This document shows positions 698 to 12,434 of a stretch of DNA of 12,434 nt, piece after piece. The notes under the pieces are model-generated. The model did no database searches. It saw only the letters and a program-made list of their open reading frames with translations, and had not been told where the DNA came from. Position numbers and translations under genes: made by a program. Position 1 is the stretch's first letter, and every line of letters begins with the position of its first letter. This stretch comes from a virus. The stretch is from IMG/VR virus record IMGVR_UViG_3300045988_167490, positions 1-12,434 of that record; one strand, written 5' to 3'.

Positions 698-762
698 AAC
701 ACGATTTTGTTTAATGTTTTACGTGAAACACGATTTTGTTTAATGTTTCACGTGAAACATTA
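698..762. repeat. 29-bp tandem repeat (2.2 copies) ending in a 22-bp perfect palindrome TAATGTTTCACGTGAAACATTA
   Basis: Unit AACACGATTTTGTTTAATGTTTYACGTGA occurs at 698-726 and 727-755 with one T/C difference, plus a partial third unit. The perfect palindrome is at 741-762. A third copy lies inverted at 5592-5622. Confidence 0.9.
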
Positions 763-766
763 TTTT
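741..766 (+). terminator. Possible weak intrinsic terminator/attenuator formed by the palindrome
   Basis: A 9-bp AT-rich stem (TAATGTTTC/GAAACATTA) with a 4-nt loop is followed by TTTT (763-766), immediately before the SD GGAGG (767-771) of the next gene. The stem is AT-rich, so its strength is doubtful. Confidence 0.3.
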
Positions 767-780
767 GGAGGTAAAATATT

Positions 781-1236
781 ATGGTAAATTATATTGGAAT
801 TAAAAAAATTAAAGCTGAACCTATGACAAGAGGTGATTATAACAAATTCAGAGGATGGAATATCCCTGAAAACGAAAATCCAAATGACAATGGATATATA
901 GTAAAATATTCTGATGGTTATATCTCATGGAGTCCAAAGTCAGTTTTTGAAGAAGCTTATGATGAAATTGGAAATAAACCTCTGATTGATACAGTTGTAT
1001 TAATGAAAAGCAATGATTATAAAGAAAGATTTATTGCAGAGTATCAGCAATTGGTAATCCGCTATAAGGGATTGAAGAAAATGCTTGATAATTGGGATAA
1101 GGGAGAATTATCTTTCGTTCCGGCTTGTTCACGCAGTACATATAATAAGCAGATTAAATCAATGTTAGACTATATTGCCGTACTCGAAGTAAGGGCGGTT
1201 ATGGAAGGTATCAATTTGCAGGGTGATAAAACTTGA
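781..1236 (+). CDS. Early protein with an N4 gp49 / Sf6 gp66-like N-terminal domain and a crAss001_48-like C-terminal domain
   Basis: SD GGAGG lies 9 nt upstream. The N-terminus KAEPMTRGDYNKFRGWNIPENE..GYIVKYSDGYISWSPKSVFEEAY matches my memory of the N4 Gp49/Sf6 gene 66 family signature. The C-terminus (KERFIAEYQQLVIRYKGLKKML..LSFVPACS..MLDYIAVLEVRA) resembles proteins annotated as crAss001_48-related. The function of both families is unknown. Confidence 0.6.
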   Translation: MVNYIGIKKIKAEPMTRGDYNKFRGWNIPENENPNDNGYIVKYSDGYISWSPKSVFEEAYDEIGNKPLIDTVVLMKSNDYKERFIAEYQQLVIRYKGLKKMLDNWDKGELSFVPACSRSTYNKQIKSMLDYIAVLEVRAVMEGINLQGDKT

Positions 1237-1544
1237 TTACTAATCATTCAGTGAAAATATACTTGAGTGAAGAAAACACTAACAAAATTGAATATATGCA
1301 ATATTTGAAACAAAAGGCAGGTGCTAATAGTTACAAATATCGCAGAACTTTTGACGATATTGTAAATAATGTAATATCTGAAAATCTGACAGAGCGACAG
1401 CGACAAATTATTGAATTACATATGCAAGGATTGAAAAATAAAGATATTGCACAAAAGTTAAACTTATCTCAATGTACAGTTAGTAGACATTTGCAAAAAG
1501 GAAAGGAAAGAATATATGCAGTAGTCAAATATTTTTATCGGTGA
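1233..1544 (+). CDS. Sigma-70 region-4-like HTH protein (103 aa); putative transcription regulator
   Basis: TTG start with GGGTGA (1221-1226) 6 nt upstream, overlapping the previous stop (cTTGA). LTERQRQIIELHMQGLKNKDIAQKLNLSQCTVSRHLQKGKERI is a typical sigma-70 r4 / LuxR-type HTH. I saw no region 2. Confidence 0.7.
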   Translation: MITNHSVKIYLSEENTNKIEYMQYLKQKAGANSYKYRRTFDDIVNNVISENLTERQRQIIELHMQGLKNKDIAQKLNLSQCTVSRHLQKGKERIYAVVKYFYR

Positions 1545-1548
1545 TAAT

Positions 1549-1833
1549 ATGTATAATTGTAAATCAACTTGTAAAGGCAAAACTAATCAATTAAAAATCA
1601 ATTTGTATTTGTCGCTTTTTGAAAATGAATATGCGAAAAAGTATTTGCAATGGGCAAATGAATATTCAACAGACATATTACAAATAGAAAAAACTGTTGA
1701 TAATTTGAACGAAACAAAACGCAACAGATATGTACCAAAATTACACGAATATCGCAGAATTTTAAATGACTTAGTAGAAATACAAGAATTTTTAATAATC
1801 AGAGCATTACAGATTGAAACAAAATCAACTTAA
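1549..1833 (+). CDS. Hypothetical protein (94 aa), predicted helical
   Basis: ATG lies 4 nt after the previous stop, with a weak SD GGTGA. I recognise no family. Confidence 0.55.
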   Translation: MYNCKSTCKGKTNQLKINLYLSLFENEYAKKYLQWANEYSTDILQIEKTVDNLNETKRNRYVPKLHEYRRILNDLVEIQEFLIIRALQIETKST

Positions 1834-1892
1834 TTGCAATTAGTTTATATAAATTTGTTTGGTAGTTGCAAATTAAAATAAAACTACTGCCA

Positions 1893-1911
1893 TAGAATTT
1901 TAAAAATTCTA
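1893..1911. promoter_or_regulatory. 19-bp palindrome TAGAATTTT-A-AAAATTCTA in the long intergenic region
   Basis: It has 9-bp perfect arms around a single central A. It shares the 14-mer TTTTAAAAATTCTA with the spacer of the early promoter (216-229). Confidence 0.5.
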
Positions 1912-2002
1912 ATTGTTCAAACGGATTTGTTAGCTACTCAAATTCAAAAAAGTAGTCCGAACACACAATTCAAAATTTTCAAAAAAGAAAGGAAACAAAA
2001 CT

Positions 2003-2377
2003 ATGGCAAAGACATTTACATCAACACACGAACTCACTGCAGTTGAAAAAATCAAATTGAAGAACATTGACGCTTTTTCAATCGCAGAACTCACAAAGAA
2101 CAGCGAAAGCGGATTTTGTATCGGTAATGTGAAGTCAATCACTATTATTTCAGATACAGAAAACGCAGAGATTTCAGAAATTGCAATTTTTGAAACAGAG
2201 AACGCAGACGGCGAAACGGAGTTTTATCTGGCAAGCTCTAAAGTAGTTATTGATACTATTTCAGACATTATCGCAGATGTAGCAGATGACGAAAGCGTGT
2301 TACAGGAATTTGTTTTCTGTTTTTCTTATGGTGTAAGCAAGAACGGCAACAGATATTTAGCAGTTAAAGTAAAATAA
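2003..2377 (+). CDS. Putative single-stranded DNA-binding protein (phi29 gp5-like), 124 aa
   Basis: It is the same length as phi29 p5. The C-terminal half ADGETEFYLASSKVVIDTISDIIADV...EFVFCFSYGVSKNGNRYLAVKV lines up with my recollection of p5 (ADGSLYSAISKTVAEAASDLIDLV...TFKVKVVQGTSSKGNVFFSLQL). SD AAAGGA lies 9 nt upstream. The alignment is from memory, not computed. Confidence 0.5.
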   Translation: MAKTFTSTHELTAVEKIKLKNIDAFSIAELTKNSESGFCIGNVKSITIISDTENAEISEIAIFETENADGETEFYLASSKVVIDTISDIIADVADDESVLQEFVFCFSYGVSKNGNRYLAVKVK

Positions 2378-2781
2378 TGAGAGAGTTTATTTTACATATG
2401 CAAGTTGTTTTATCTGTAATCGGAGCGTTTTTTGGTTGGTTCTTCGGCGGCGCTGACGGATTTCTATATGCGTTAATTGCATTTGTAATTATCGATTATG
2501 CAACAGGTGTTATAAATGCGATAATTTCTAAAGCGTTGTCAAGTGAAATTGGTTTTAAAGGAATTTGCAAAAAAGTAATGATTTTCATTTTAGTAGGTGT
2601 TGCACATTTAATTGATTTATTTATTTTGCAAGAAGGAACAGCTATTAGAACAGCAGTAATTTTCTTTTATCTTGCAAACGAGGGAATATCTATTCTTGAA
2701 AATTCAGCAAAAATTGGATTACCTATTCCGAAAAAATTAAAACAAATTCTCGCACAAATTAATAAAAGGAGTGGAGAATGA
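2377..2781 (+). CDS. Holin (phage_holin_4_1-type, as in Clostridia/Bacilli phages)
   Basis: The start is coupled to the previous stop (TAATG). There are four hydrophobic segments (VVLSVIGAFFGWFFGG; FLYALIAFVIIDYATGVINAI; VMIFILVGVAHLIDLFI; AVIFFYLANEGISIL). The conserved IDYxTG...KGxxKK...YxxNExxSIxEN..GxPxP pattern is characteristic of this holin family. Confidence 0.85.
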   Translation: MREFILHMQVVLSVIGAFFGWFFGGADGFLYALIAFVIIDYATGVINAIISKALSSEIGFKGICKKVMIFILVGVAHLIDLFILQEGTAIRTAVIFFYLANEGISILENSAKIGLPIPKKLKQILAQINKRSGE

Positions 2782-2782
2782 T

Positions 2783-3697
2783 ATGTCAAAAATTACAAAT
2801 AATGTCAGTCGAGGTTTGACCTCGACTGACGGATTTATTCATTACTTTAATATGCTGTATGATAAAGTATCAAATATGTTTGTATGGGAAAATTTACCAA
2901 AAAGCATTGATGTTAACTACTTAAACAGATGTTTATTTTTAAAAGGTCATTGTGCTTTTTTTAAATTAAACGGTAATTTTTATGTTGCAAACGGAGGCTT
3001 TGCAGGTGAGCCGAACGAGTATTATATGCCGTCGCAGTATATTATAGCTAACCCCGCATTGGGCAGTCATACATTTACAATTAACAAAGATTGTGTTATT
3101 TTGTATAATTCAGCTAAAGACATACAGTATAATGATTTTCCGATTTTGTCAGCTGCACGAGGCGGTTTATATTCTTTGATTTATCGAACAGCTATTTTAT
3201 TATCTGATAATGAATGTTCAATAAATGTAGCTCAAAAAAATTCGAGATTTTTTGCGTTTGCGTCAGCGGATACGGAAAACGCTTATAAAAGCGTATCAGA
3301 AGTATTTAAGAAAATTTACAACGGCGAGGAATTTGCAATAGCAAAGAGCGACATTGCAAGCACTATTTCTATATCACCGCTCGCAACAGGTGGCGGCTCT
3401 GTTAGTCCCACACTGCAAACATTAATTGATATTCAGCAATATTTTTTGGCACAATTTTATCACGCAATCGGCGTAAATTCTAATTTCAATATGAAAAAAG
3501 AAAGGCTCGTTAGTGACGAAATTGCTGTTAATGATACAGCGACAGAAGTTAATATCAATTCAATGTTAGAAATGAGGGAAAACAATGTTCAATCACTTAA
3601 TAATCTTTTCAATCTTAATTGTGACGTTGTTTTGTCTGATTTATGGAAACAAAAAACAATAGAAAAATCAGAAGAAAAAGAAGAAACGGAGGAATAA
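2783..3697 (+). CDS. Head-tail connector / portal (phi29 gp10 upper-collar-like)
   Basis: About 304 aa, against 309 aa for gp10. FIHYFNMLYDKVSNMFVWENLPKSIDVNYL matches gp10 [30 protein letters not shown], and NMKKERLVSDEIAVNDTATE matches [21 protein letters not shown]. ATG 2783 has GGAG 6 nt upstream. The track's GTG 2771 overlaps the holin gene. Confidence 0.9.
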   Translation: MSKITNNVSRGLTSTDGFIHYFNMLYDKVSNMFVWENLPKSIDVNYLNRCLFLKGHCAFFKLNGNFYVANGGFAGEPNEYYMPSQYIIANPALGSHTFTINKDCVILYNSAKDIQYNDFPILSAARGGLYSLIYRTAILLSDNECSINVAQKNSRFFAFASADTENAYKSVSEVFKKIYNGEEFAIAKSDIASTISISPLATGGGSVSPTLQTLIDIQQYFLAQFYHAIGVNSNFNMKKERLVSDEIAVNDTATEVNINSMLEMRENNVQSLNNLFNLNCDVVLSDLWKQKTIEKSEEKEETEE

Positions 3698-3700
3698 GCT

Positions 3701-4423
3701 TTGAGTTTATTATGCGGATATGATGAAGTTGAACTTGAAACACTTGAAGAGTTTGCAGAAAAAAACAAAGCTAATTTTGCTAATTTCTTTGATTATGCTA
3801 CAGATATAGCAACTCCGTTTGGTTTTTCAGTAACGGATTTATCAGATATGTTTTTAGAACTATACAAGTACAGATATATGATTATTGATTGCAATAAAAT
3901 TGCTGATTATAATACATATTACAAAAGAGCAAAAGTTGTATATAATCTTAACAAAAACAAATATATCAAACTTGTTGCTACTGAAACAGTTGAGTATAAT
4001 CCAATTGAGAATTACTCAATGATTGAAACCGGAAACGAAACAAGAACGCCAAACTTGACAAGGTCATCAGAGGGAACAGCAAGTGAAAGCGGCACTAATA
4101 GTGCTAATAACACAACAAGCAATACATCAACAGACAGCAATACAAGTTTTGATAGTACAGCTTTTGTTAATAATTCTAAAAATGAATTAACAGGCAATTC
4201 AAACACAACAGGCGAAAATACAGCTAAAAGCAACTCGACAGTTACTAGCAAGGAAACGGGAACAGAACAAACAACGAACGAACTGACACGAAAGGGCAAT
4301 ATAGGTGTTACAACAACACAACAAATGCTTGAGCAAGAAAGAGCGATTGCGGACTTTTCAACAATTAAAATATTTTTTGAAGATGTCGCAAAATTGCTTT
4401 TCTTTGATATTCTAAATTTATAA
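3701..4423 (+). CDS. Lower collar / tail tube adaptor (phi29 gp11-like)
   Basis: It lies immediately after the connector, as in phi29. TTG start with GGAGG 8 nt upstream. It has EYNPIENY and RKGNIGVTTTQQMLEQE motifs flanking a long Ser/Thr/Asn-rich stretch, which is the pattern I recall for gp11-type lower collar proteins. Confidence 0.6.
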   Translation: MSLLCGYDEVELETLEEFAEKNKANFANFFDYATDIATPFGFSVTDLSDMFLELYKYRYMIIDCNKIADYNTYYKRAKVVYNLNKNKYIKLVATETVEYNPIENYSMIETGNETRTPNLTRSSEGTASESGTNSANNTTSNTSTDSNTSFDSTAFVNNSKNELTGNSNTTGENTAKSNSTVTSKETGTEQTTNELTRKGNIGVTTTQQMLEQERAIADFSTIKIFFEDVAKLLFFDILNL

Positions 4424-4442
4424 CAGAAAGGAAATGAAAAAA

Positions 4443-5588
4443 ATGAAAGTTAAACAAATTGCGGAGATTTTAAACACAATTAATGCCGAAATTATTGGTG
4501 AGAGCGCAGTAGTTGCGGAGGATTTATCTAACATCGTTGATGTCGGTAAGGAAGTTATCGGTGCGGTTGACATTGAGAACTACACAAGGTCATTAATTGA
4601 CCGCGTCGGAAGAGTTGTGTTCTGGGATAGAACATACAATTCAACAGCACCGAATATTCTTAAAGACTCTTGGGAATTCGACTCCATTATGGAAAAAATC
4701 CGTTGTGAACTTCCCGATGTAGAGGAAAACCCGTCGTGGAAATTGACTAAAGGTCAGAGTTACGACCCATTTATTTTTAACCCACCAGCGGTAAAAGCAA
4801 AATTTTTCAACAGCAAGACAACATTTGAAATACCGATATCGTTTGTTGAAGAGCAGATAAAATCAGCTTTTACATCAGCAAGCGAAATGTCAAGATTTTT
4901 TGCTATGATTGAAAATCGTGTTATTATGAAAATGACGCTTTGCACTGATAGTATGATAATGCGCACTATTAACAACTTGATTGCTGAAAAGTTTGCGGCA
5001 AACAACAATGTTATTAATTTGCTCGCTGGCTACAATACAAAAATGGGAACTACATTGACAGCGGCTAAAGCATTAAGCGACAAAGAATTTTTACGCTATG
5101 CTTGCAAACAAATTAATCTTTACAGCGATTATTTGACAAGAGCGTCAATGCTCTTTAATGACAAAGGTTATGTCACATTTACACCAAAAGAAAACCAGAA
5201 AATCGTTATGCTTTCGGAGTTTGACAAGTCAGCAGAAGTTTATCTGTACTCTGATACATTCCATAACAGTTTTGTAAAACTTGACGGCTATACAACTGTT
5301 CCATATTGGCAGGGTTCAGGTACAGATGATAACTTCGATTTTGACGAAATCAGTAAAATTTCTGTAAAAACAGCAAGCGGAACTGACATTGAAAAAACAG
5401 GTATTATCGGTGTAATCTTTGACGAAAACGCTTGCGCTGTTTGTAACGAAAATCCTCGCACAACAAGTCAGTACAATGCTAAAGGCGAGTTTATCAACTA
5501 TTTTCATAAATGGGATTGCTCATATATCAATGATACAAACGAAAATTGCATTGTTTTTGTTGTCGAAGATACAACAGGCAAACCGTAA
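4443..5588 (+). CDS. Major capsid protein (phi29 gp8-like HK97 fold, without a C-terminal Ig-like domain)
   Basis: YTRSLIDRVGRVVF matches gp8 FITSLVDRIGLVVI, and GIIGVIFDENACAVCNENPRTTSQYNAKGEFINYFHKW matches [39 protein letters not shown]. It is followed by a hairpin terminator. The start is ambiguous: ATG 4443 is 10 nt from AAAGGA, while the track's ATG 4434 is only 1 nt from it. Confidence 0.82.
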   Translation: MKVKQIAEILNTINAEIIGESAVVAEDLSNIVDVGKEVIGAVDIENYTRSLIDRVGRVVFWDRTYNSTAPNILKDSWEFDSIMEKIRCELPDVEENPSWKLTKGQSYDPFIFNPPAVKAKFFNSKTTFEIPISFVEEQIKSAFTSASEMSRFFAMIENRVIMKMTLCTDSMIMRTINNLIAEKFAANNNVINLLAGYNTKMGTTLTAAKALSDKEFLRYACKQINLYSDYLTRASMLFNDKGYVTFTPKENQKIVMLSEFDKSAEVYLYSDTFHNSFVKLDGYTTVPYWQGSGTDDNFDFDEISKISVKTASGTDIEKTGIIGVIFDENACAVCNENPRTTSQYNAKGEFINYFHKWDCSYINDTNENCIVFVVEDTTGKP

Positions 5589-5591
5589 TCA

Positions 5592-5622
5592 AATGTTTCA
5601 CGTGAAACATTAAACAAAATCG
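5592..5622. repeat. Third, inverted copy of the palindrome-containing element
   Basis: AATGTTTCACGTGAAACATTAAACAAAATCG is the exact 31-nt reverse complement of 731-761. It starts 4 nt after the capsid stop codon and overlaps the first 2 nt of the terminator stem. Confidence 0.92.
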
Positions 5623-5646
5623 CCCTACAAAATTTCTTGTAGGGCG
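5621..5646 (+). terminator. GC-rich hairpin terminator downstream of the major capsid gene
   Basis: A 10-bp stem CGCCCTACAA/TTGTAGGGCG with loop AATTTC. The + strand tail is only ATAATTG. On the - strand the hairpin is followed by ATTTTGTTT, so it looks bidirectional or even better oriented for antisense. Confidence 0.6.
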
Positions 5647-5666
5647 ATAATTGAAAAGGTGATAAA

Positions 5667-6185
5667 ATGAAGGTAACATTATGCACTTTAACAGAAAACA
5701 GAAAAAACGCAGTTATAAAAACATTTACAGAAATTAAAACTATATCAGCGCAACAAATAGAGCAAATGACCGTTTCTGATTTGGAATGCACAATAGTTTT
5801 AAATTTCAATAATAGCATTTCAATGTTAACTAATAGTAATTTAGTAAATTATGCGCATATCAATTTAGAAAGAACTATTTACTATTTTATTGATAAAATC
5901 GAATTTTTGACGGGTAGTAGAATTGTACTACATCTTGTCGAGGATGTTTTAGCAACATATTCAGACGAAATTTTACAACTGAATTGTTTGATTACTCGAC
6001 AAGAAAACATCAAAAGCAATTTTATAGTTGATAATTTTTTACCGTTGAAAAATGAAAAAACAATAAAGGTTATTGATTTTGATAATTCAGAGTTTAATTT
6101 AAGTACAGCGACAAAAGACAGCTACAATTTTTTATTGACCGTTGCGGGAGGTGGCACAAATGGAACTCAACAGACAAATATATAA
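5667..6185 (+). CDS. Tail knob protein, N-terminal module (phi29 gp9 N-terminus-like), 172 aa
   Basis: SD AAGGTGA. IYYFIDKIEFLTGSRIVLHLVEDVLATYSDEILQLNCLITRQE aligns with gp9 [44 protein letters not shown] (from memory). It ends 26 nt inside the next ORF. Confidence 0.6.
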   Translation: MKVTLCTLTENRKNAVIKTFTEIKTISAQQIEQMTVSDLECTIVLNFNNSISMLTNSNLVNYAHINLERTIYYFIDKIEFLTGSRIVLHLVEDVLATYSDEILQLNCLITRQENIKSNFIVDNFLPLKNEKTIKVIDFDNSEFNLSTATKDSYNFLLTVAGGGTNGTQQTNI

Positions 6186-8301
6186 AACAGAAAATGATGT
6201 AAATTATAACGGTATAATTTTTAATACTAAAGGATTGAGCGAATATACAAACAGTGATGATTATAAATTCAATCAAGACTATAACAAAATGCCAGACATC
6301 TCATTTGCGTACGGAATGAGCAAAGGAAAATACTCGCCGCATTGCAATTTTGCAGTTGTTGCAACTAATCTGAATGTAAACCCAGATGTGAGTAAAATTC
6401 AGATTACAAAATATAATCAACCGTTCGCTTACTGTTTTTTGAATAGAGCGAAAGAGTTAATGCACAGTCCGTTTTTGCCTGTCGGGCTTTTTGGTAAGTA
6501 TCCAATCCGAACAACGGTAAGTACCGAAAACACTAATTTTACCTCGTGGGGCAAGGGTACACAAGGAACAGCACAACAAGCGGCGTTTTTTAGAAGTTTT
6601 GTTCCCGCTGTCAAATTTAATTATCAACAATTTGCTATTTGTCCCACTTTTGAGTGTAGTAGCACGATTGACTTGGCAATTCAAAAAAATACTGTCGGAG
6701 AGGTAAAAAGAAAACTTAATGAATTATCAGACGATTATAAATATATCAGTACTGTTAATATGTTAGGTACATATTATAACGGTGAGTCTGTTAGTGGTGC
6801 TAATCACGATGTTGCTGTTTCTGGTATCAATAACATAAAAATCATAACATATAAATCAAGCGGCATAACGGGTGTTGATATTGAACCCGATAATCAAGCA
6901 AAACCGGATATAAGTTTTGAACGATTAACAGTGCTCGGAAATTCTACGCCAATACGCTCAATAAACGAGTTAGCTGGCAAAACGATTAACACTGCTATTA
7001 GATGTCCAGAACCGTTCGAGATTTTAGCGAACAGTGACAAAGAATGGTTCGGAACTGTAGCGGCATATACAGAAAAAGAAAAATTTAAAAGATTAATAAG
7101 TTGTTACGGGTTAATTTGGTGTGACGATAAAGATTATATCGTTAGAGATTTAAACGAAAATACTATTAATGAACATTATTATATACCAATTCGCAACAGC
7201 GAAGGTTTTTATGTTGGCGATTACCTGCAAGGTGAAGAGGCAATCGACTATTTGAAAAAACACCCAGAACTCAACACCACAGACCAATGGCAAAAAAATA
7301 ACGGAGTTGTTATCAATCCCGATACACACGATTATACAAACGATATTGATTTAAATAAGCCCAATCTCTCAACAATCGGTGTTTTCAATCGTAGTTATGC
7401 TATGAATTTTAAGGATATTTTGTCATTATCTAATTATATGTGGAACAGTGACGATAATATATTTAATCAAATTGTCGAAAGTTTAAAGCTATTCGGTGAA
7501 AATCCTATAAACGCACTAATCAGCTTGCGTTTATATCCGTTCGACCTTGATAAAAAATTAGGTTCAACCGCAGTGGAAAAAATCAAACTCGGTAGAATTG
7601 TTACAGATGTTGACGGAAAAATATTACCAAATGACATAGACTGCGTTTTTGATTTGGGTTCAACCGATTTTCCGAATTACCACGATAATTTTTTAGATTA
7701 TTCACCGTATACCGATTGCGAGTTAATTATACCATATTGCGGTAATTTGACAATTCAACCGCAAGAATTTATCGGAAAAACATTATCAATTAAGTTAGTT
7801 GTTGACTTCAATTTAGGTGCTTGCACCGCTGTAATTTTTGCGGACGGTATTCCAAAGCTGTACAAAAGTGGCAACATTGGCGCAGAAGTTGCTATGAGTA
7901 GCAATATATCCGCCGATTATGGTAAAAATTGGTTAAATGCGAGCGTGGGGGCTGTATCTAATATATCGTCAATTGCAAGCGGTAATCTTGTAAGCGTTCT
8001 AGGCAGTGCAACCGATATAGCAAAATCGTACACTCAACCTACAATATTTCAAAATGTAGCTGGCAACTCCTCAACGGTTAACAATTGGTTACCGCAAAAG
8101 GCATATTTGATTATCAGAACATCAGAGAGCAACGAGCCCGAAAATTACGGTGCTACTGTCGGCTATGCGTGTAGTTTTAAAGAAAAATTGCAAAATTTGA
8201 GCGGTTATACAGTAGTCAGTAATCCGCAAATTTCGTTTAAATGCTCAAGTGCTGAAAATGACGAAATAAAAAGAATTTTGCAAAACGGTTTTTATATTTG
8301 A
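6160..8301 (+). CDS. Tail knob protein, main/C-terminal module (phi29 gp9-like) with a large extra central region
   Basis: ATG 6160 has GGGAGGTG (6146-6153) 6 nt upstream; the track's TTG 6142 is unlikely. The C-terminal third resembles gp9: YSPYTDCELIIPYCGNLTIQ vs MMYPYCVTEITDFKGNHMNL; a Gly/Ser/Ala-rich loop (SVGAVSNISSIASGNLVSVLGSA) like the gp9 membrane-active loop; SAENDEIKRILQNGFYI vs NNNDLQEIRTIFDNGITLW. Confidence 0.72.
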   Translation: MELNRQIYKTENDVNYNGIIFNTKGLSEYTNSDDYKFNQDYNKMPDISFAYGMSKGKYSPHCNFAVVATNLNVNPDVSKIQITKYNQPFAYCFLNRAKELMHSPFLPVGLFGKYPIRTTVSTENTNFTSWGKGTQGTAQQAAFFRSFVPAVKFNYQQFAICPTFECSSTIDLAIQKNTVGEVKRKLNELSDDYKYISTVNMLGTYYNGESVSGANHDVAVSGINNIKIITYKSSGITGVDIEPDNQAKPDISFERLTVLGNSTPIRSINELAGKTINTAIRCPEPFEILANSDKEWFGTVAAYTEKEKFKRLISCYGLIWCDDKDYIVRDLNENTINEHYYIPIRNSEGFYVGDYLQGEEAIDYLKKHPELNTTDQWQKNNGVVINPDTHDYTNDIDLNKPNLSTIGVFNRSYAMNFKDILSLSNYMWNSDDNIFNQIVESLKLFGENPINALISLRLYPFDLDKKLGSTAVEKIKLGRIVTDVDGKILPNDIDCVFDLGSTDFPNYHDNFLDYSPYTDCELIIPYCGNLTIQPQEFIGKTLSIKLVVDFNLGACTAVIFADGIPKLYKSGNIGAEVAMSSNISADYGKNWLNASVGAVSNISSIASGNLVSVLGSATDIAKSYTQPTIFQNVAGNSSTVNNWLPQKAYLIIRTSESNEPENYGATVGYACSFKEKLQNLSGYTVVSNPQISFKCSSAENDEIKRILQNGFYI

Positions 8302-8992: not shown

Positions 8993-11161
8993 ATGTTGCA
9001 TTTTTCTGAATTTCCAAAGCAGAATTATAAATTTGATATTGTTACTAAGAAAACAAAAAAGCAAGAAATTGAATATTATAACACTGCATTTTCTTTTGAT
9101 ATTGAAACAACTAGCTTTTATTATGAGAACGGTTGTTCGATAATTCCAAAGACGAATGAAACAGAAAAATACAACAAAGCGGCAGTTATGTATATATGGC
9201 AATTTGGAGTAGGTCAAGATGTTTATTACGGTCGTACTTGGCAGGACTTTAAAGATTTTCTAATGATGTTAAAAGAATATTTCAATCTAAACAACAATAG
9301 AAAAATTATAATTTATGTACATAATTTAGCGTATGAATTTCAATTTTTAAGAAAAGAGTTCAACATCACAAATATGTTTGCTCGACAAGAGCGAAAACCG
9401 ATACACTTCACATTAAACGAATTTTTCGAGTTTAAATGTAGTTTTATGTTGAGTTGCTCAAGTCTTGAAACAATTGCAAAAAATTTAACAACAGTAAAAA
9501 TCAATAAAAAAATCGGTGACTTGAATTATAGATTATATCGTAATTCAAGTACACCGCTGACCTCAACCGAACTCGGCTACTGCGAATATGATATAAAAAT
9601 ACTGCAATACTATATCAGCGAAGAGATTGCATTAAATGAAAATAACATCTTAAACATACCACTGACAAAAACGGGTTACGTTAGAAGATTTTGCCGCAAC
9701 GCTTTGAAAGAAAACAATTATAAAAAATATCGTATGTTTATCAAAGATAACTCACCCGAAACAGAAGAGTTTATTTTACTTAACAAAATTTTTCAGGGCG
9801 GCTACACGCACGCAAATTGCAACTATGTAGGTTTAACTTTAAATGATGTTAGTAGCATTGACTTTACAAGTAGTTATCCGTCAGTAATGATTAGACATAA
9901 GTTTCCTATGCGAAAATTTAAGAAAATTGACATTATAGATTATGATACTTTTACAGAATTTATAAACAAATTTCCTTGCATTTTCGAAATTATGTTTACT
10001 AATCTAAAAGCGAAAACATCACATCACATCATACAAAGAGCAAAGTGCAGTGTTTGCACAAATGGTGTTTTCGATAACGGACGAATAATGCAAGCTGATA
10101 GTATTATAACATATTGCAATGATGTTGATTTTAAATGTATTCAAGATTTTTATACATATGACAGTATCACAATTAAAAATTTTTGGTACAGCAAATATGA
10201 GTATTTACCGAAAACAATTATTGAATGTATATTAAAGTTATACAACGATAAAACAATGTTAAAAGGTGTAGCAGGATATGAAAAAGAATATTTAATAAAA
10301 AAGGGTATGTTAAACAGTTCGTACGGAATGTGTGTTACCAATCCATGCAATGACGAAATTTCATATACAGAAAATTGGCAGAAAGAACGCAAAAGCATTG
10401 ACGAATGCTTAAAAGATAATAAATATAACTATAATCAATTTCTTTTGTATTCGTGGGGTGTTTGGGTGACATCTTGGGCAAGATATGAACTTTTTGACGG
10501 TATCAAAAATATTAATGAAGATGTTATTTATTCAGATACTGACAGCATTAAATTTTTAAATTTTGATAAACACAAAGAATATATAAACGCTTACAACAAG
10601 CGTGTTGCTAAAGAATTAAAACAGTGTTGTGATTTTTACAATATTGATTTTGAATTAACGCAACCCGAAAAAAGCGGAAAAAAATATCCGCTTGGCGTAT
10701 GGGATATTGAAAAAAGCTACACAAGGTTTAAAACGCTCGGAGCGAAAAGATATTGTTATCAGTACGCTGACGGCAGTGTAAACTTGACCGTATCGGGCAT
10801 TAATAAAAAATATGCAGTGCCTTATATGATGTCAGTATGTAACAATGATGTTAATAAGTTTTTTGATATGTTCAATTCAAATCTGAAAATACCAAAAGGC
10901 AAAACAGGAAAATTAACTCATACATATATTGATAATGAAATTAATGTTACTTTAGTTGACTATAATGGAAATTCAGAGATTGAAAACATTAAAAGTTGTA
11001 TTCACTTAGAAGATACAGAGTTTACATTGCAGATGTCAACTGAATTTTTGTCATTTTTGTGTGACTTTGTTTTTGACGAACTCGGAAACAATTTTTCATT
11101 AGGAATAAAGAGAGACGAACTTGCAATCACTTTTTTCGATAATTTTAGAAACGGAGTATAA
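8993..11161 (+). CDS. Protein-primed family-B DNA polymerase
   Basis: ExoI FSFDIETT; ExoII HNLAYEF; SLETIAKNL; ExoIII YCEYDIKIL; motif A IDFTSSYPS (Dx2SLYP); motif B KKGMLNSSYG (Kx3NSxYG); GVWVTSWARYELF (cf. phi29 GVFITAWARYTTI); motif C IYSDTDSIKF; KxY GAKRYCY. SD AGAGGA lies 6 nt upstream. Confidence 0.96.
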   Translation: MLHFSEFPKQNYKFDIVTKKTKKQEIEYYNTAFSFDIETTSFYYENGCSIIPKTNETEKYNKAAVMYIWQFGVGQDVYYGRTWQDFKDFLMMLKEYFNLNNNRKIIIYVHNLAYEFQFLRKEFNITNMFARQERKPIHFTLNEFFEFKCSFMLSCSSLETIAKNLTTVKINKKIGDLNYRLYRNSSTPLTSTELGYCEYDIKILQYYISEEIALNENNILNIPLTKTGYVRRFCRNALKENNYKKYRMFIKDNSPETEEFILLNKIFQGGYTHANCNYVGLTLNDVSSIDFTSSYPSVMIRHKFPMRKFKKIDIIDYDTFTEFINKFPCIFEIMFTNLKAKTSHHIIQRAKCSVCTNGVFDNGRIMQADSIITYCNDVDFKCIQDFYTYDSITIKNFWYSKYEYLPKTIIECILKLYNDKTMLKGVAGYEKEYLIKKGMLNSSYGMCVTNPCNDEISYTENWQKERKSIDECLKDNKYNYNQFLLYSWGVWVTSWARYELFDGIKNINEDVIYSDTDSIKFLNFDKHKEYINAYNKRVAKELKQCCDFYNIDFELTQPEKSGKKYPLGVWDIEKSYTRFKTLGAKRYCYQYADGSVNLTVSGINKKYAVPYMMSVCNNDVNKFFDMFNSNLKIPKGKTGKLTHTYIDNEINVTLVDYNGNSEIENIKSCIHLEDTEFTLQMSTEFLSFLCDFVFDELGNNFSLGIKRDELAITFFDNFRNGV

Positions 11162-11164
11162 ACA

Positions 11165-12250
11165 ATGAAGTATTACAGTTTAAAAAATATTGATAAAAAA
11201 CAAGCCGAATATAACGTCATAATCGGTAAAAGAAGTAACGGAAAAACATACTCTGTATGTGATAAATCACTTAGAGAACATTACAAATCAGGAAAACGGC
11301 TTGCATATATCAGACGATACGCAGAAGATATTACACCGAAATTTATAAAAAAGCTGTTTGCACCACACGATTTGGAAAGTATCACGGCAGGCAAGTGGAA
11401 TTACATACGATATTATAACAGAGGATTTTATTTTGCTAAAATAGAAGATAATAAAATTATTGATTGCGAAGTAGAACCGTTTTGTCAAACGTTTGCGTTG
11501 AATGTTTGGGAAAGCGCAAAAGGAGCTGATAACGGATATTTTGATTATATTTTATTTGACGAATTTATCACAAGAGGACACTATTTAGCAGATGAATTTA
11601 TCATATTTTGTAATGTGCTTTCTTCCGTGTTGCGTGACCGTGACGGCACAAAAATATATATGCTTGCTAATACAATCAACAAATATTGCATATATTTTTC
11701 CGAAATGGGTATTAATGATGTTGAGAATATGCAACAAGGCGAAATTAAAGTTTATCCGTTCGGATATGGTAATGAGAAGTTGCAGATAGCAGTTGAATAC
11801 TGTTCAGATACAGATAATACTAAAAAAGTAAGTAAGTATTTTGCGTTCACAAATCCACGCACAAAAATGATTACGGAGGGAAAATGGGAGATTAAAAACT
11901 ATCCACATATTCCAAAAAATATTACTTCTGATAATATTATATATAAAGCGTTTGTTTTTTTCAATCATAAATTTATGTGTGTAAATATTTGTGAAAAAAA
12001 CTCCGAAGTGTTTTTGACTGTACATATGCAAACAAAAGAATTTAATTCAGATAATATCATTTTTGATTTTACACCAAACACCAAAACAAATTATTTTATA
12101 AATCTGAATGTTTGCGATAACAAAATCGGATTGCTGATTAGAAATTTAATAAACAAGCAAAAAATTTTTTATGCCAGCAATGAAGTCGGCGAATTATTCC
12201 GCAATTGGATTTTAGAGCAATCAAAAACGCAACAAATATTTTTGAGTTGA
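11165..12250 (+). CDS. DNA encapsidation (packaging) ATPase, phi29 gp16-like
   Basis: Walker A NVIIGKRSNGKTYS (gp16 NFVIGARGIGKSYA); LAYIRRY (FIYVRRY); Walker B YILFDEFI (TIVFDEFI); YMLANTINKYCIYF (CLSNAVSVVNPYF). SD GGAG lies 8 nt upstream. It is the last gene before the right ITR. Confidence 0.9.
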   Translation: MKYYSLKNIDKKQAEYNVIIGKRSNGKTYSVCDKSLREHYKSGKRLAYIRRYAEDITPKFIKKLFAPHDLESITAGKWNYIRYYNRGFYFAKIEDNKIIDCEVEPFCQTFALNVWESAKGADNGYFDYILFDEFITRGHYLADEFIIFCNVLSSVLRDRDGTKIYMLANTINKYCIYFSEMGINDVENMQQGEIKVYPFGYGNEKLQIAVEYCSDTDNTKKVSKYFAFTNPRTKMITEGKWEIKNYPHIPKNITSDNIIYKAFVFFNHKFMCVNICEKNSEVFLTVHMQTKEFNSDNIIFDFTPNTKTNYFINLNVCDNKIGLLIRNLINKQKIFYASNEVGELFRNWILEQSKTQQIFLS

Positions 12251-12332: not shown

Positions 12333-12424
12333 TTTTTAATATGCTTTAACGCTTTAGCACTTTAGCACTTTAGCACTTTAGCACACTAAAGCGGGGAGCG
12401 GCAAAGTTTGTTAAAAGTTTAACA
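12314..12424. repeat. Right inverted terminal repeat (ITR)
   Basis: Exact reverse complement of 11-121. It mirrors the 8-bp tandem array (12345-12384) and the hairpin (12317-12344). Confidence 0.93.
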
Positions 12425-12434
12425 AGATCGGAAG
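12425..12434. other. Illumina adapter remnant (AGATCGGAAG); not biological sequence
   Basis: AGATCGGAAG is the start of the standard adapter read-through sequence AGATCGGAAGAGC. Confidence 0.85.

Follow-up and report, generated by a model that had tools for sequence, protein, structure and literature searches.

Putative chromosomal parS sites on the genome of an uncultivated phi29-like phage

Why would a virus with about 15 genes keep the same short palindrome at several places in its DNA? The question is raised by the IMG/VR virus record IMGVR_UViG_3300045988_167490, the 12,434 nucleotides of which, analysed at full length and called the window in what follows, are the complete linear genome of a phi29-like, protein-primed podophage. 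An earlier note on this DNA had drawn attention to a repeated element centred on CACGTG, and its description holds. A 29-nt unit, AACACGATTTTGTTTAATGTTTYACGTGA, is present twice in tandem (698-726 and 727-755), the two copies differing solely at T720/C749. A perfect 22-bp palindrome, TAATGTTTCACGTGAAACATTA, occupies 741-762, 4 nt upstream of the GGAGG (767-771) that precedes the ATG at 781. Finally, 731-761 recurs in inverted orientation at 5592-5622, over 31 nt and with 100% complementarity (pair I5 of the repeat analysis). This distant copy starts 4 nt past the stop codon of the major capsid protein (MCP) gene, and reaches, with its last 4 nt, into the stem of a GC-rich hairpin (5619-5648). 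We shall call the tandem pair site 1 and the post-capsid copy site 2. The earlier note saw the motif as a repeat, but did not recognise what its core appears to be: the 16-mer TGTTTCACGTGAAACA, which we predict to be a chromosomal parS, the universal centromere sequence of bacteria and binding site of ParB/Spo0J. Our favoured explanation, to which we give a probability of about 0.72, is that the palindromes of the window are sites for the ParB of the host, carried by a phi29-like phage.

Identity of the 16-bp core

The three sites (Table 1) match the 16-bp consensus TGTTNCACGTGAAACA, two of them exactly and one with a single mismatch. In Bacillus subtilis, TGTTTCACGTGAAACA is the 'optimal sequence' of parS, the natural site within parB reads TGTTCCACGTGAAACA, and ParB occupies several kilobases around each parS (PMC4333373). 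The same 16-mer is given as the parS consensus across phyla (PMC7022226) and, with up to two mismatches, it marks 1 to 10 parS in each genome of 12 gut bacteria, every one of them with ParABS homologues (PMC10197239). When the 16-mer was used as a string in a full-text search, the matches listed all dealt with ParB/parS or with related aspects of chromosome-origin biology. In IMG/VR, at least 120 contigs have exact copies of TGTTTCACGTGAAACA. Among the matches listed are high-G+C contigs unrelated to this phage, and many have 2 to 5 copies, a spread suggestive of a universal protein-binding motif; by tblastn, about 30 of the first 120 are phi29-like.

That the repeat could not be fortuitous had been asserted from the start, and both shuffling and base composition bear this out. 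With up to three mismatches to the 16-mer allowed, 3 sites turn up in the window; 200 shuffles gave 0.20 on average and never as many as 3. The number of exact copies expected from the composition of the window is 3.9e-6. Fewer than ten parS sites are usual on a chromosome of several megabases. In the window they occur about once per 4 kb, a density some 1000 times the chromosomal one, and each of the three is intergenic. The centres of the tandem ones are spaced 29 bp apart, the 29-nt unit at 698-755 (repeat families D4 and D9) being made of a T-rich flank and a parS, and a degenerate third unit (TTGTTAATGT..AACAC), devoid of a palindrome centre, is found at 686-702. The flank AAACAAAATCG accompanies parS in the inverted 31-nt copy as well (5592-5622, minus strand).

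If these are protein-binding sites, which protein would use them? No ParB domain was found in the proteins of the window, even at E values up to 10. For 106 open reading frames (ORFs) of 12 relatives with parS, the 25 of 32 Pfam families listed include no ParBc and no GerE, the 7 others being single weak hits. On the simplest reading, it is the chromosomal ParB of the host that binds. Dimers of host ParB/Spo0J would nucleate on the parS sites of the window through their helix-turn-helix (HTH) domains and then, as clamps dependent on cytidine triphosphate (CTP), would spread over several kilobases, enough to cover the greater part of the 12 kb of this genome. This would tie the phage DNA to the ParA/SMC segregation machinery of the host and, by analogy with phi29, a genome replicating slowly or not at all might, during a pause in lytic growth, be passed on to the forespore or to daughter cells.

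The analogy deserves to be spelt out. By our count phi29 (NC_011048) has 4 copies of TGTTTCACGTGGAACA, 3 of them inside genes. In the passages of PMC2731898 that deal with this phage, citing Meijer et al. (2005, EMBO J 24:3647), it is said to carry five parS, and Spo0J acts in the prespore segregation of its genome; the same passages connect parS sites, host Spo0J and spore entrapment in the Bacillus phages phi29 (and Nf), and it is by analogy with them that we propose a role for the sites of the window. Both phi29 and the window are protein-primed podophages with the 16-bp motif at several sites, no phage ParB and an otherwise virulent character. Even the surroundings can be alike: the phi29 site at 17243-17258 abuts the stop of gene 16, with the annotated bidirectional terminator TD1 (17262-17301) beginning 3 nt further on, and as in site 2 of the window the order is that of a late-gene stop (in phi29 that of the last late gene), parS, an A tract and a hairpin. 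The window differs in that two of its sites are perfect palindromes, two are arranged as a 29-bp tandem pair and all are intergenic, in its genome of 12.4 kb with unidirectional transcription, in being uncultivated, and in its host, probably a gut member of the Clostridia and not a Bacillus. It also differs with respect to the Spo0A boxes that accompany parS in phi29: of the features that make up phi29-type entrapment, parS on a virulent phi29-like genome is present in the window, while there is no sign of Spo0A boxes at promoters.

Two other families of partition sites help to place the motif. With the chromosomal complexes of parS and CTP-bound ParB (Spo0J), the window shares the optimal, consensus sequence and the clustering of several sites within a few kilobases, as around oriC; unlike them, its sites belong to a virus with a linear genome of 12 kb, the ends of which are expected to be capped by terminal protein, and there is no parAB operon in cis. 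Plasmid prophages such as P1, N15 and those of mycobacteriophages have their own ParA and ParB, and their own, non-chromosomal parS. Unlike these, the window has neither ParA nor ParB and appears to copy the chromosomal site of its host. What it has in common with the parABS of P1 and N15, and with the extrachromosomal mycobacteriophage parABS (PMC7157519), is that of a phage genome with centromere-like segregation sites.

The motif among phi29-like phages

Two IMG/VR genomes from one metagenome, hereafter L001 and L002, were found through the capsid and have about 90% nucleotide identity to the window. After the capsid stop, L001 has one parS-like copy with a G-to-A change (one mismatch), followed by the same GC hairpin as in the window; L002 has two tandem exact parS, 24 bp apart, with different flanks, and lacks the GC hairpin. 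A post-capsid parS-like site is kept, then, despite changes in flanks, copy number and neighbouring hairpin. The earlier note had advised looking for its element in related genomes: the core persists there, as a palindrome of 16-18 bp, but the 29-31-nt unit does not, and the latter is not a functional unit.

For a wider view, 80 loci were fetched through alignment of the DNA polymerase (polB), regardless of parS. One of them was L001 again, so that the set comprises 82 loci, namely 79 new ones together with L001, L002 and the window. A parS with no more than one mismatch is present in 46 of the 82, and in 37 of the 57 that measure at least 10 kb; there are 126 sites where about 0.012 would be expected. 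A control set of 47 loci (410 kb), mostly larger phage contigs fetched through homologues of gene 781 of the window, gave no parS at all. The parS-bearing phi29-like phages span 25% to 52% G+C. Tandem sites recur in many of them, at a spacing of 24-42 bp, and ORFs contain only 51 of the 126 sites for a coding fraction of 91%, as measured with a crude, greedy caller that overcalls ORFs in the inverted terminal repeats (ITRs). In several loci an exact parS sits just past the stop codon of polB, with a degenerate half-match (..ATCACGTGGAACA) some 20 bp upstream of it (L158, 3566-3601; L135, 2766-2801; L146, about 3770-3813), so that pairing of sites is a repeated theme, with spacings that vary from 20 to 42 bp.

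The way in which the sites vary is instructive. Among the 79 polB loci, TGTTCCACGTGAAACA, in one orientation or the other, accounts for 99 of the 104 sites with one mismatch, and the 4 sites of phi29 are of this variant too; the variant of the window (C6 to T) is rarer, with two other occurrences. TGTTCCACGTGAAACA breaks the pairing of the palindrome at the very position where natural parS is tolerant, which argues for recognition by a protein and not for selection of an RNA stem. Indeed, the pattern follows the specificity of ParB, with its degenerate position 5/12, not the complementarity of a hairpin.

One large clade extends the trait in another direction. Its members (L166-L201, about 11 kb, 42-45% G+C) have tandem parS (TGTTTCACGTGGAACA, 42-bp period) inside both ITRs and thus beside the origins of replication, for example at 206/248 and 10928/10970 in L171. 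In L171 and L183, the two members checked, Shine-Dalgarno (SD) motifs precede 0 of 11-12 genes, and from this absence their hosts are probably Bacteroidota, which do not sporulate. The presence of parS in a clade of this kind means that the trait is probably not confined to phages of spore-formers. Sites within ITRs are also seen in L156, L155, L133, L139, L164 and L102. Taken as a whole, the survey suggests that parS is common among phi29-like phages, often in tandem and often inside ITRs.

Several points weigh against the view that the window has sites for host ParB. Both the binding of ParB at these sites and the identity of the host are things that we infer. An RNA-level and a DNA-level role are inseparable by sequence alone, for the sites are intergenic and the tandem pair folds strongly. 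None of the six Gram-negative isolates that were checked has parS, and among them are phages of Acinetobacter and Vibrio, the hosts of which do have ParABS. A sister clade (L123-L130), in which the gene order is unchanged and the MCP is 61% identical, is without parS, and parS is therefore dispensable for the basic cycle. The gene for an HTH protein (Table 1) accompanies parS in the window, L001 and L002, both being absent from L123-L130; since this co-occurrence concerns a single lineage it is weak evidence, outweighed by phi29 and the other parS-bearing clades that have no such protein. Lastly, Spo0A boxes are not enriched in the window (TGTCGAA is found 2 times, against 1.64 expected), neither of the two lies near the predicted early promoter at 211-238, and the excess of TGNCGAA is wholly on the coding strand within genes. 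As for the host range of Astrithrvirus, a prediction that parS would be found on phages of ParABS-bearing hosts and not on enterobacterial ones had to be set aside as uninformative, with parS in 0 of 6 isolates.

Table 1. Coordinates of the palindromes and of the genes and hairpin discussed in the text (positions in the window)
Feature	Position	Strand	Remarks
parS-like copy 1, TGTTTTACGTGAAACA	715-730	.	1 mismatch, C6 to T
parS copy 2, exact TGTTTCACGTGAAACA (predicted)	744-759	.	core of the 22-bp palindrome 741-762
parS copy 3, exact (predicted)	5594-5609	.	5 nt past the major capsid protein stop; position conserved in the clade
Gene 781, accessory, crAss001_48-related (PF21825)	781-1236	+	horizontally acquired
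LuxR/GerE/NarL-type HTH protein, 103 aa	1233-1544	+	domain match; context, not supported as parS binder
GP10 connector	2771-3697	+	phi29-type
Phi29_MCP capsid	4434-5588	+	phi29-type, E 3e-52; stop codon 5586-5588
GC-rich hairpin, 12-13 bp, about -20 kcal/mol	5619-5648	-	terminator scan: minus strand only
Protein-primed family-B DNA polymerase	8993-11161	+	phrog_1907, E 2.5e-64
gp16 packaging ATPase	11165-12250	+	phi29-type

Alternative readings and the origin of the tandem pair

Palindromes in DNA are also potential hairpins in RNA, and the most serious of the alternatives grants both: the sites would be true ParB sites, and the tandem pairs would in addition act as transcription attenuators or as mRNA-stabilising hairpins in intercistronic slots. 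Everything that speaks for host ParB speaks for this idea too, and the folds come on top of it. As RNA, the tandem pair at 698-755 makes a stem of 19 bp with UUUU after it (centroid -22.7 kcal/mol, z -3.0), although the terminator scan does not call it; the tandem parS after the capsid gene of L002 gives a hairpin of -23.2 kcal/mol, and it is exactly where parS is doubled that the GC hairpin is missing. A stable hairpin fills the post-capsid slot in each clade, be it the GC hairpin of the window and L001, the tandem parS of L002, or the unrelated structure of L123-L130 (AACGTTGCAAC..GTTGCAACGTT, inside the palindrome TAGTTGCAACGTTGCAACTA), which lies about 30-90 nt past the stop, reaches -23.4 kcal/mol and, because a T-A pair is replaced in L123 by a compensatory G-C pair, qualifies as an RNA-structure element. 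With long stems in the tandem pairs and a stable hairpin after the capsid gene in each clade, a secondary role of tandem parS as attenuator or mRNA stabiliser is therefore plausible. Against this, palindromes repeated in tandem acquire hairpin potential automatically, and at the position of site 1 the relatives have an element that does not fold significantly. The latter belongs to a second intergenic repeat (TTGTTTGGTAGT.GCAA.TTAAAA.AA.ACTAC), found at 1851-1893 in the window, 516-579 in L001 and 790-827 in L002, which in the two relatives fills the slot that tandem parS and gene 781 occupy in the window. Its folding is no better than that of shuffled sequences, so that the notion of a 'hairpin slot' at this place is rejected. 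On balance we see a double use of the sites as possible, if rather doubtful.

It could also be that the phage profits from ParB in a less peaceful manner. Hundreds of replicating genomes, each with three sites, about one per 4 kb, where a multi-megabase chromosome has 1-10 in all, would titrate ParB and thereby the loading of SMC, disturbing segregation or division of the host. The recurrence of tandem sites in many relatives, at a spacing of 24-42 bp, would suit such a decoy. There is no precedent for it in the papers found, and the phi29 data (PMC2731898) favour segregation. We think the decoy unlikely; it would, besides, begin with the same binding event as a role in segregation, of which it is a variant and not an exclusive competitor.

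The earlier note had proposed first of all a purely RNA-level element, a hairpin with a T tract making leaky terminators or attenuators at the boundaries between early and middle genes and between capsid and tail genes. Extended to stabilisers of 3′ ends, with the first boundary taken as that between early and accessory genes and the match to parS as incidental, this proposal fits a number of facts: the sites are all intergenic, site 1 provides its 19-bp stem followed by UUUUGG, and post-capsid hairpins are present in L002 (-23.2 kcal/mol), in the window and L001 (-20) and, with its compensatory change, in L123-L130 (-23.4). Other facts speak against the proposal. Site 2 has no U tract on the plus strand. 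There the hairpin at 5619-5648 has an upstream A tract alone. Its T tract, TTTGTTTAAT, belongs to the minus strand, the conserved flank AAACAAAATCG being nothing but this tract viewed from the other side. The hairpin thus fits the class of intrinsic terminators on the minus strand, the one on which the scan calls it. A single parS, AT-rich, makes only a weak hairpin, of -7 to -8 kcal/mol. Terminators, furthermore, need no specific sequence, and yet the 16-mer recurs from 25% to 52% G+C and in phi29, where 3 of 4 sites are inside genes; the commonest variant in the relatives, TGTTCCACGTGAAACA, opens the stem with no compensation. There is a likeness to intrinsic terminators such as phi29 TD1, in that the palindrome stands by a T-rich or A-rich tract after a highly expressed late gene, but the parS palindrome is AT-rich, weak, and conserved in sequence rather than in structure. 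An element of RNA and nothing else is, we believe, quite improbable. We note in passing that no credible minus-strand gene lies to the right of the 5619-5648 hairpin, and that a sub-threshold Rfam hit to VrrA (E 0.09; minus strand, 5614-5710) probably reflects this terminator.

Its other proposal was a DNA operator for a dimeric regulator of the phage, the HTH protein encoded at 1233-1544, which would control the genes downstream. LuxR/NarL-type HTH proteins do act as dimers on inverted repeats. The HTH gene, moreover, begins about 470 nt downstream of site 1, and the joint presence or absence of this gene and parS in the window and its nearest relatives was mentioned above. As to the kind of site, a piece of DNA read by a dimeric HTH protein, the proposal was well aimed; as to the binder it was not, host ParB fitting instead. 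In the literature the only known binders of the 16-mer are chromosomal ParB proteins. phi29 has parS and no protein of this type, the 12 parS-bearing phi29-like genomes examined for domains show no GerE-type protein among the 25 of 32 families listed, and L001, with an HTH protein 94% identical to that of the window, is nonetheless devoid of site 1. We consider a phage-encoded binder of this sort very improbable.

How the tandem pair arose can be read from the close relatives. Site 1 and gene 781 are absent from both L001 and L002, homology of the window with these genomes ending at 702 and resuming at about 1216-1222. Copy 1 with its 5′ flank is the reverse complement of the post-capsid site of L001 (29/29 nt), and copy 2 with its flank is that of the post-capsid site of the window itself (31/31 nt). 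Site 1 is therefore a recent inverted duplication of the post-capsid site, confined to this lineage and placed where the horizontally acquired gene 781 joins the genome: judging from these matches, its units were made by copying that site twice, together with 10-13 nt of T-rich flank, and 5592-5622 is their probable source. Gene 781 has another history. Recently exchanged with much larger phages (window 757-1232), it shows 96% nucleotide identity to phage contigs of 30-38 kb, in which it lies just upstream of a holin-like gene, and its product has 95% amino acid identity to that of a gene, probably prophage-borne, in the genome of Ruminococcus intestinalis NSJ-71, a match that hints at the identity of the host. 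Homology with the donors starts at 757, inside the right edge of parS copy 2. We also considered that the gene might have travelled in a 'parS cassette', and ruled this out: the 5 donor loci, with genes 95-97% identical, have no parS, and their homology begins only at 757. A further exchange separates the window from L002, where genes 5667-6185 and 6142-8301, the module for the tail and host recognition, have been swapped, 5610-8064 of the window corresponding to 5635-8067 of L002 with 40-44% amino acid identity against about 93% elsewhere. The left breakpoint of this swap coincides with the end of parS, at 5609. Both mosaic junctions thus fall on parS (donor homology of gene 781 from 757, homology with L002 up to 5609), which might make of it a substrate for recombination, either through inversion of 762-5592, as the earlier note had supposed, or as a shared 'linker' for module exchange, but this is hardly credible, given that both L001 and L002 align collinearly with the window and offer no inverted form, that no recombinase gene was found in the window, that the donors of gene 781 have no parS and leave microhomology at best at the junction, and that a linker would explain neither the family-wide enrichment nor the sites in ITRs.

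The rest of the genome, and what host parS sites would mean

The window ends in perfect ITRs of 121 nt (repeat analysis, pair I1). About 10 nt of each are non-phage sequence, positions 1-10 and 12425-12434 being remnants of Illumina adapters (CTTCCGATCT, AGATCGGAAG). L002 (1-15) opens with AAAGTA, the terminal hexamer of phi29, and goes on with the sequence that starts at position 11 of the window, which is therefore short of about 7 true terminal nucleotides. Within the ITRs an 8-nt unit, (GTGCTAAA)n, is repeated in tandem 4-5 times at 51-92 and 12343-12384; close to the replication origins, this could be a candidate binding array. Just inside the left ITR, at 142-185, there are about 4 tandem copies of an 11-nt unit, ATCCATTCCTG, and downstream of these the early promoter predicted at 211-238 (TTGATT-16-TG-TATAAT).

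Other promoters were looked for at the palindromes. A sigma-70 promoter within the element was discarded, its hexamers being poor and its start falling within the SD sequence; the promoter scan returned none at 698-780 or 5590-5660, save a weak 9-of-12 site at 5651-5679. A promoter of the Bacteroidota type (TAnnTTTG) was discarded as well, with no match by eye and strong SD sites in use in the window.

The credible genes are all on the plus strand. Some mechanical calls look wrong: the ORFs at 271-429 and 399-680 have better, SD-preceded starts at ATG 292 (after GAGGTG) and ATG 444 (after AAGGAG), and the minus-strand one called at 129-338 is in all probability spurious. About 30 nt into the connector ORF, just past the holin stop, stands a strong hairpin of 13 bp, 7 of them GC pairs (TGTCAGTCGAGGTTTGACCTCGACTGACG, 2803-2831), which the terminator scan rates as terminator-like on both strands. 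Neither tRNAs nor Rfam families above noise were found in the window, and a search with its whole nucleotide sequence gave zero matches among isolate phages. The nearest polymerases are those of Astrithrvirus phages of 11-12 kb, of Amedibacillus phages and of human faecal contigs. The strong SD motifs that its genes use, the holin of the Phage_holin_4_1 family that it encodes, and its exchange of a gene with phage-like DNA of a Ruminococcus genome hint at a host among the Clostridia, perhaps Ruminococcus.

What would follow if host ParB does bind these sites? That parS can be found on a phi29-like phage was already known from phi29 itself. Its breadth among uncultivated phi29-like phages did not appear in the literature searched, and a 2024 review of the group makes no mention of parS, ParB or Spo0J. 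The role of parS may be more general than spore entrapment. We would venture, tentatively, that copying the parS of the host is a general strategy of tiny protein-primed podophages and not a peculiarity of Bacillus and its spores, ParB-CTP clamps together with ParA/SMC partitioning their capped linear genomes as episomes. A phage of this kind would be segregated with the host, hidden in its spores or carried through its divisions without genes for lysogeny. If this is true, gut phages deemed 'virulent' gain a built-in carrier state, which could help explain how they persist for long without lysogeny genes. An anonymous repeat becomes in this way a testable interface between host and phage, and parS, taken as a sequence marker, could flag dependence on ParABS hosts and a hidden carrier state, a matter of relevance to phage therapy.

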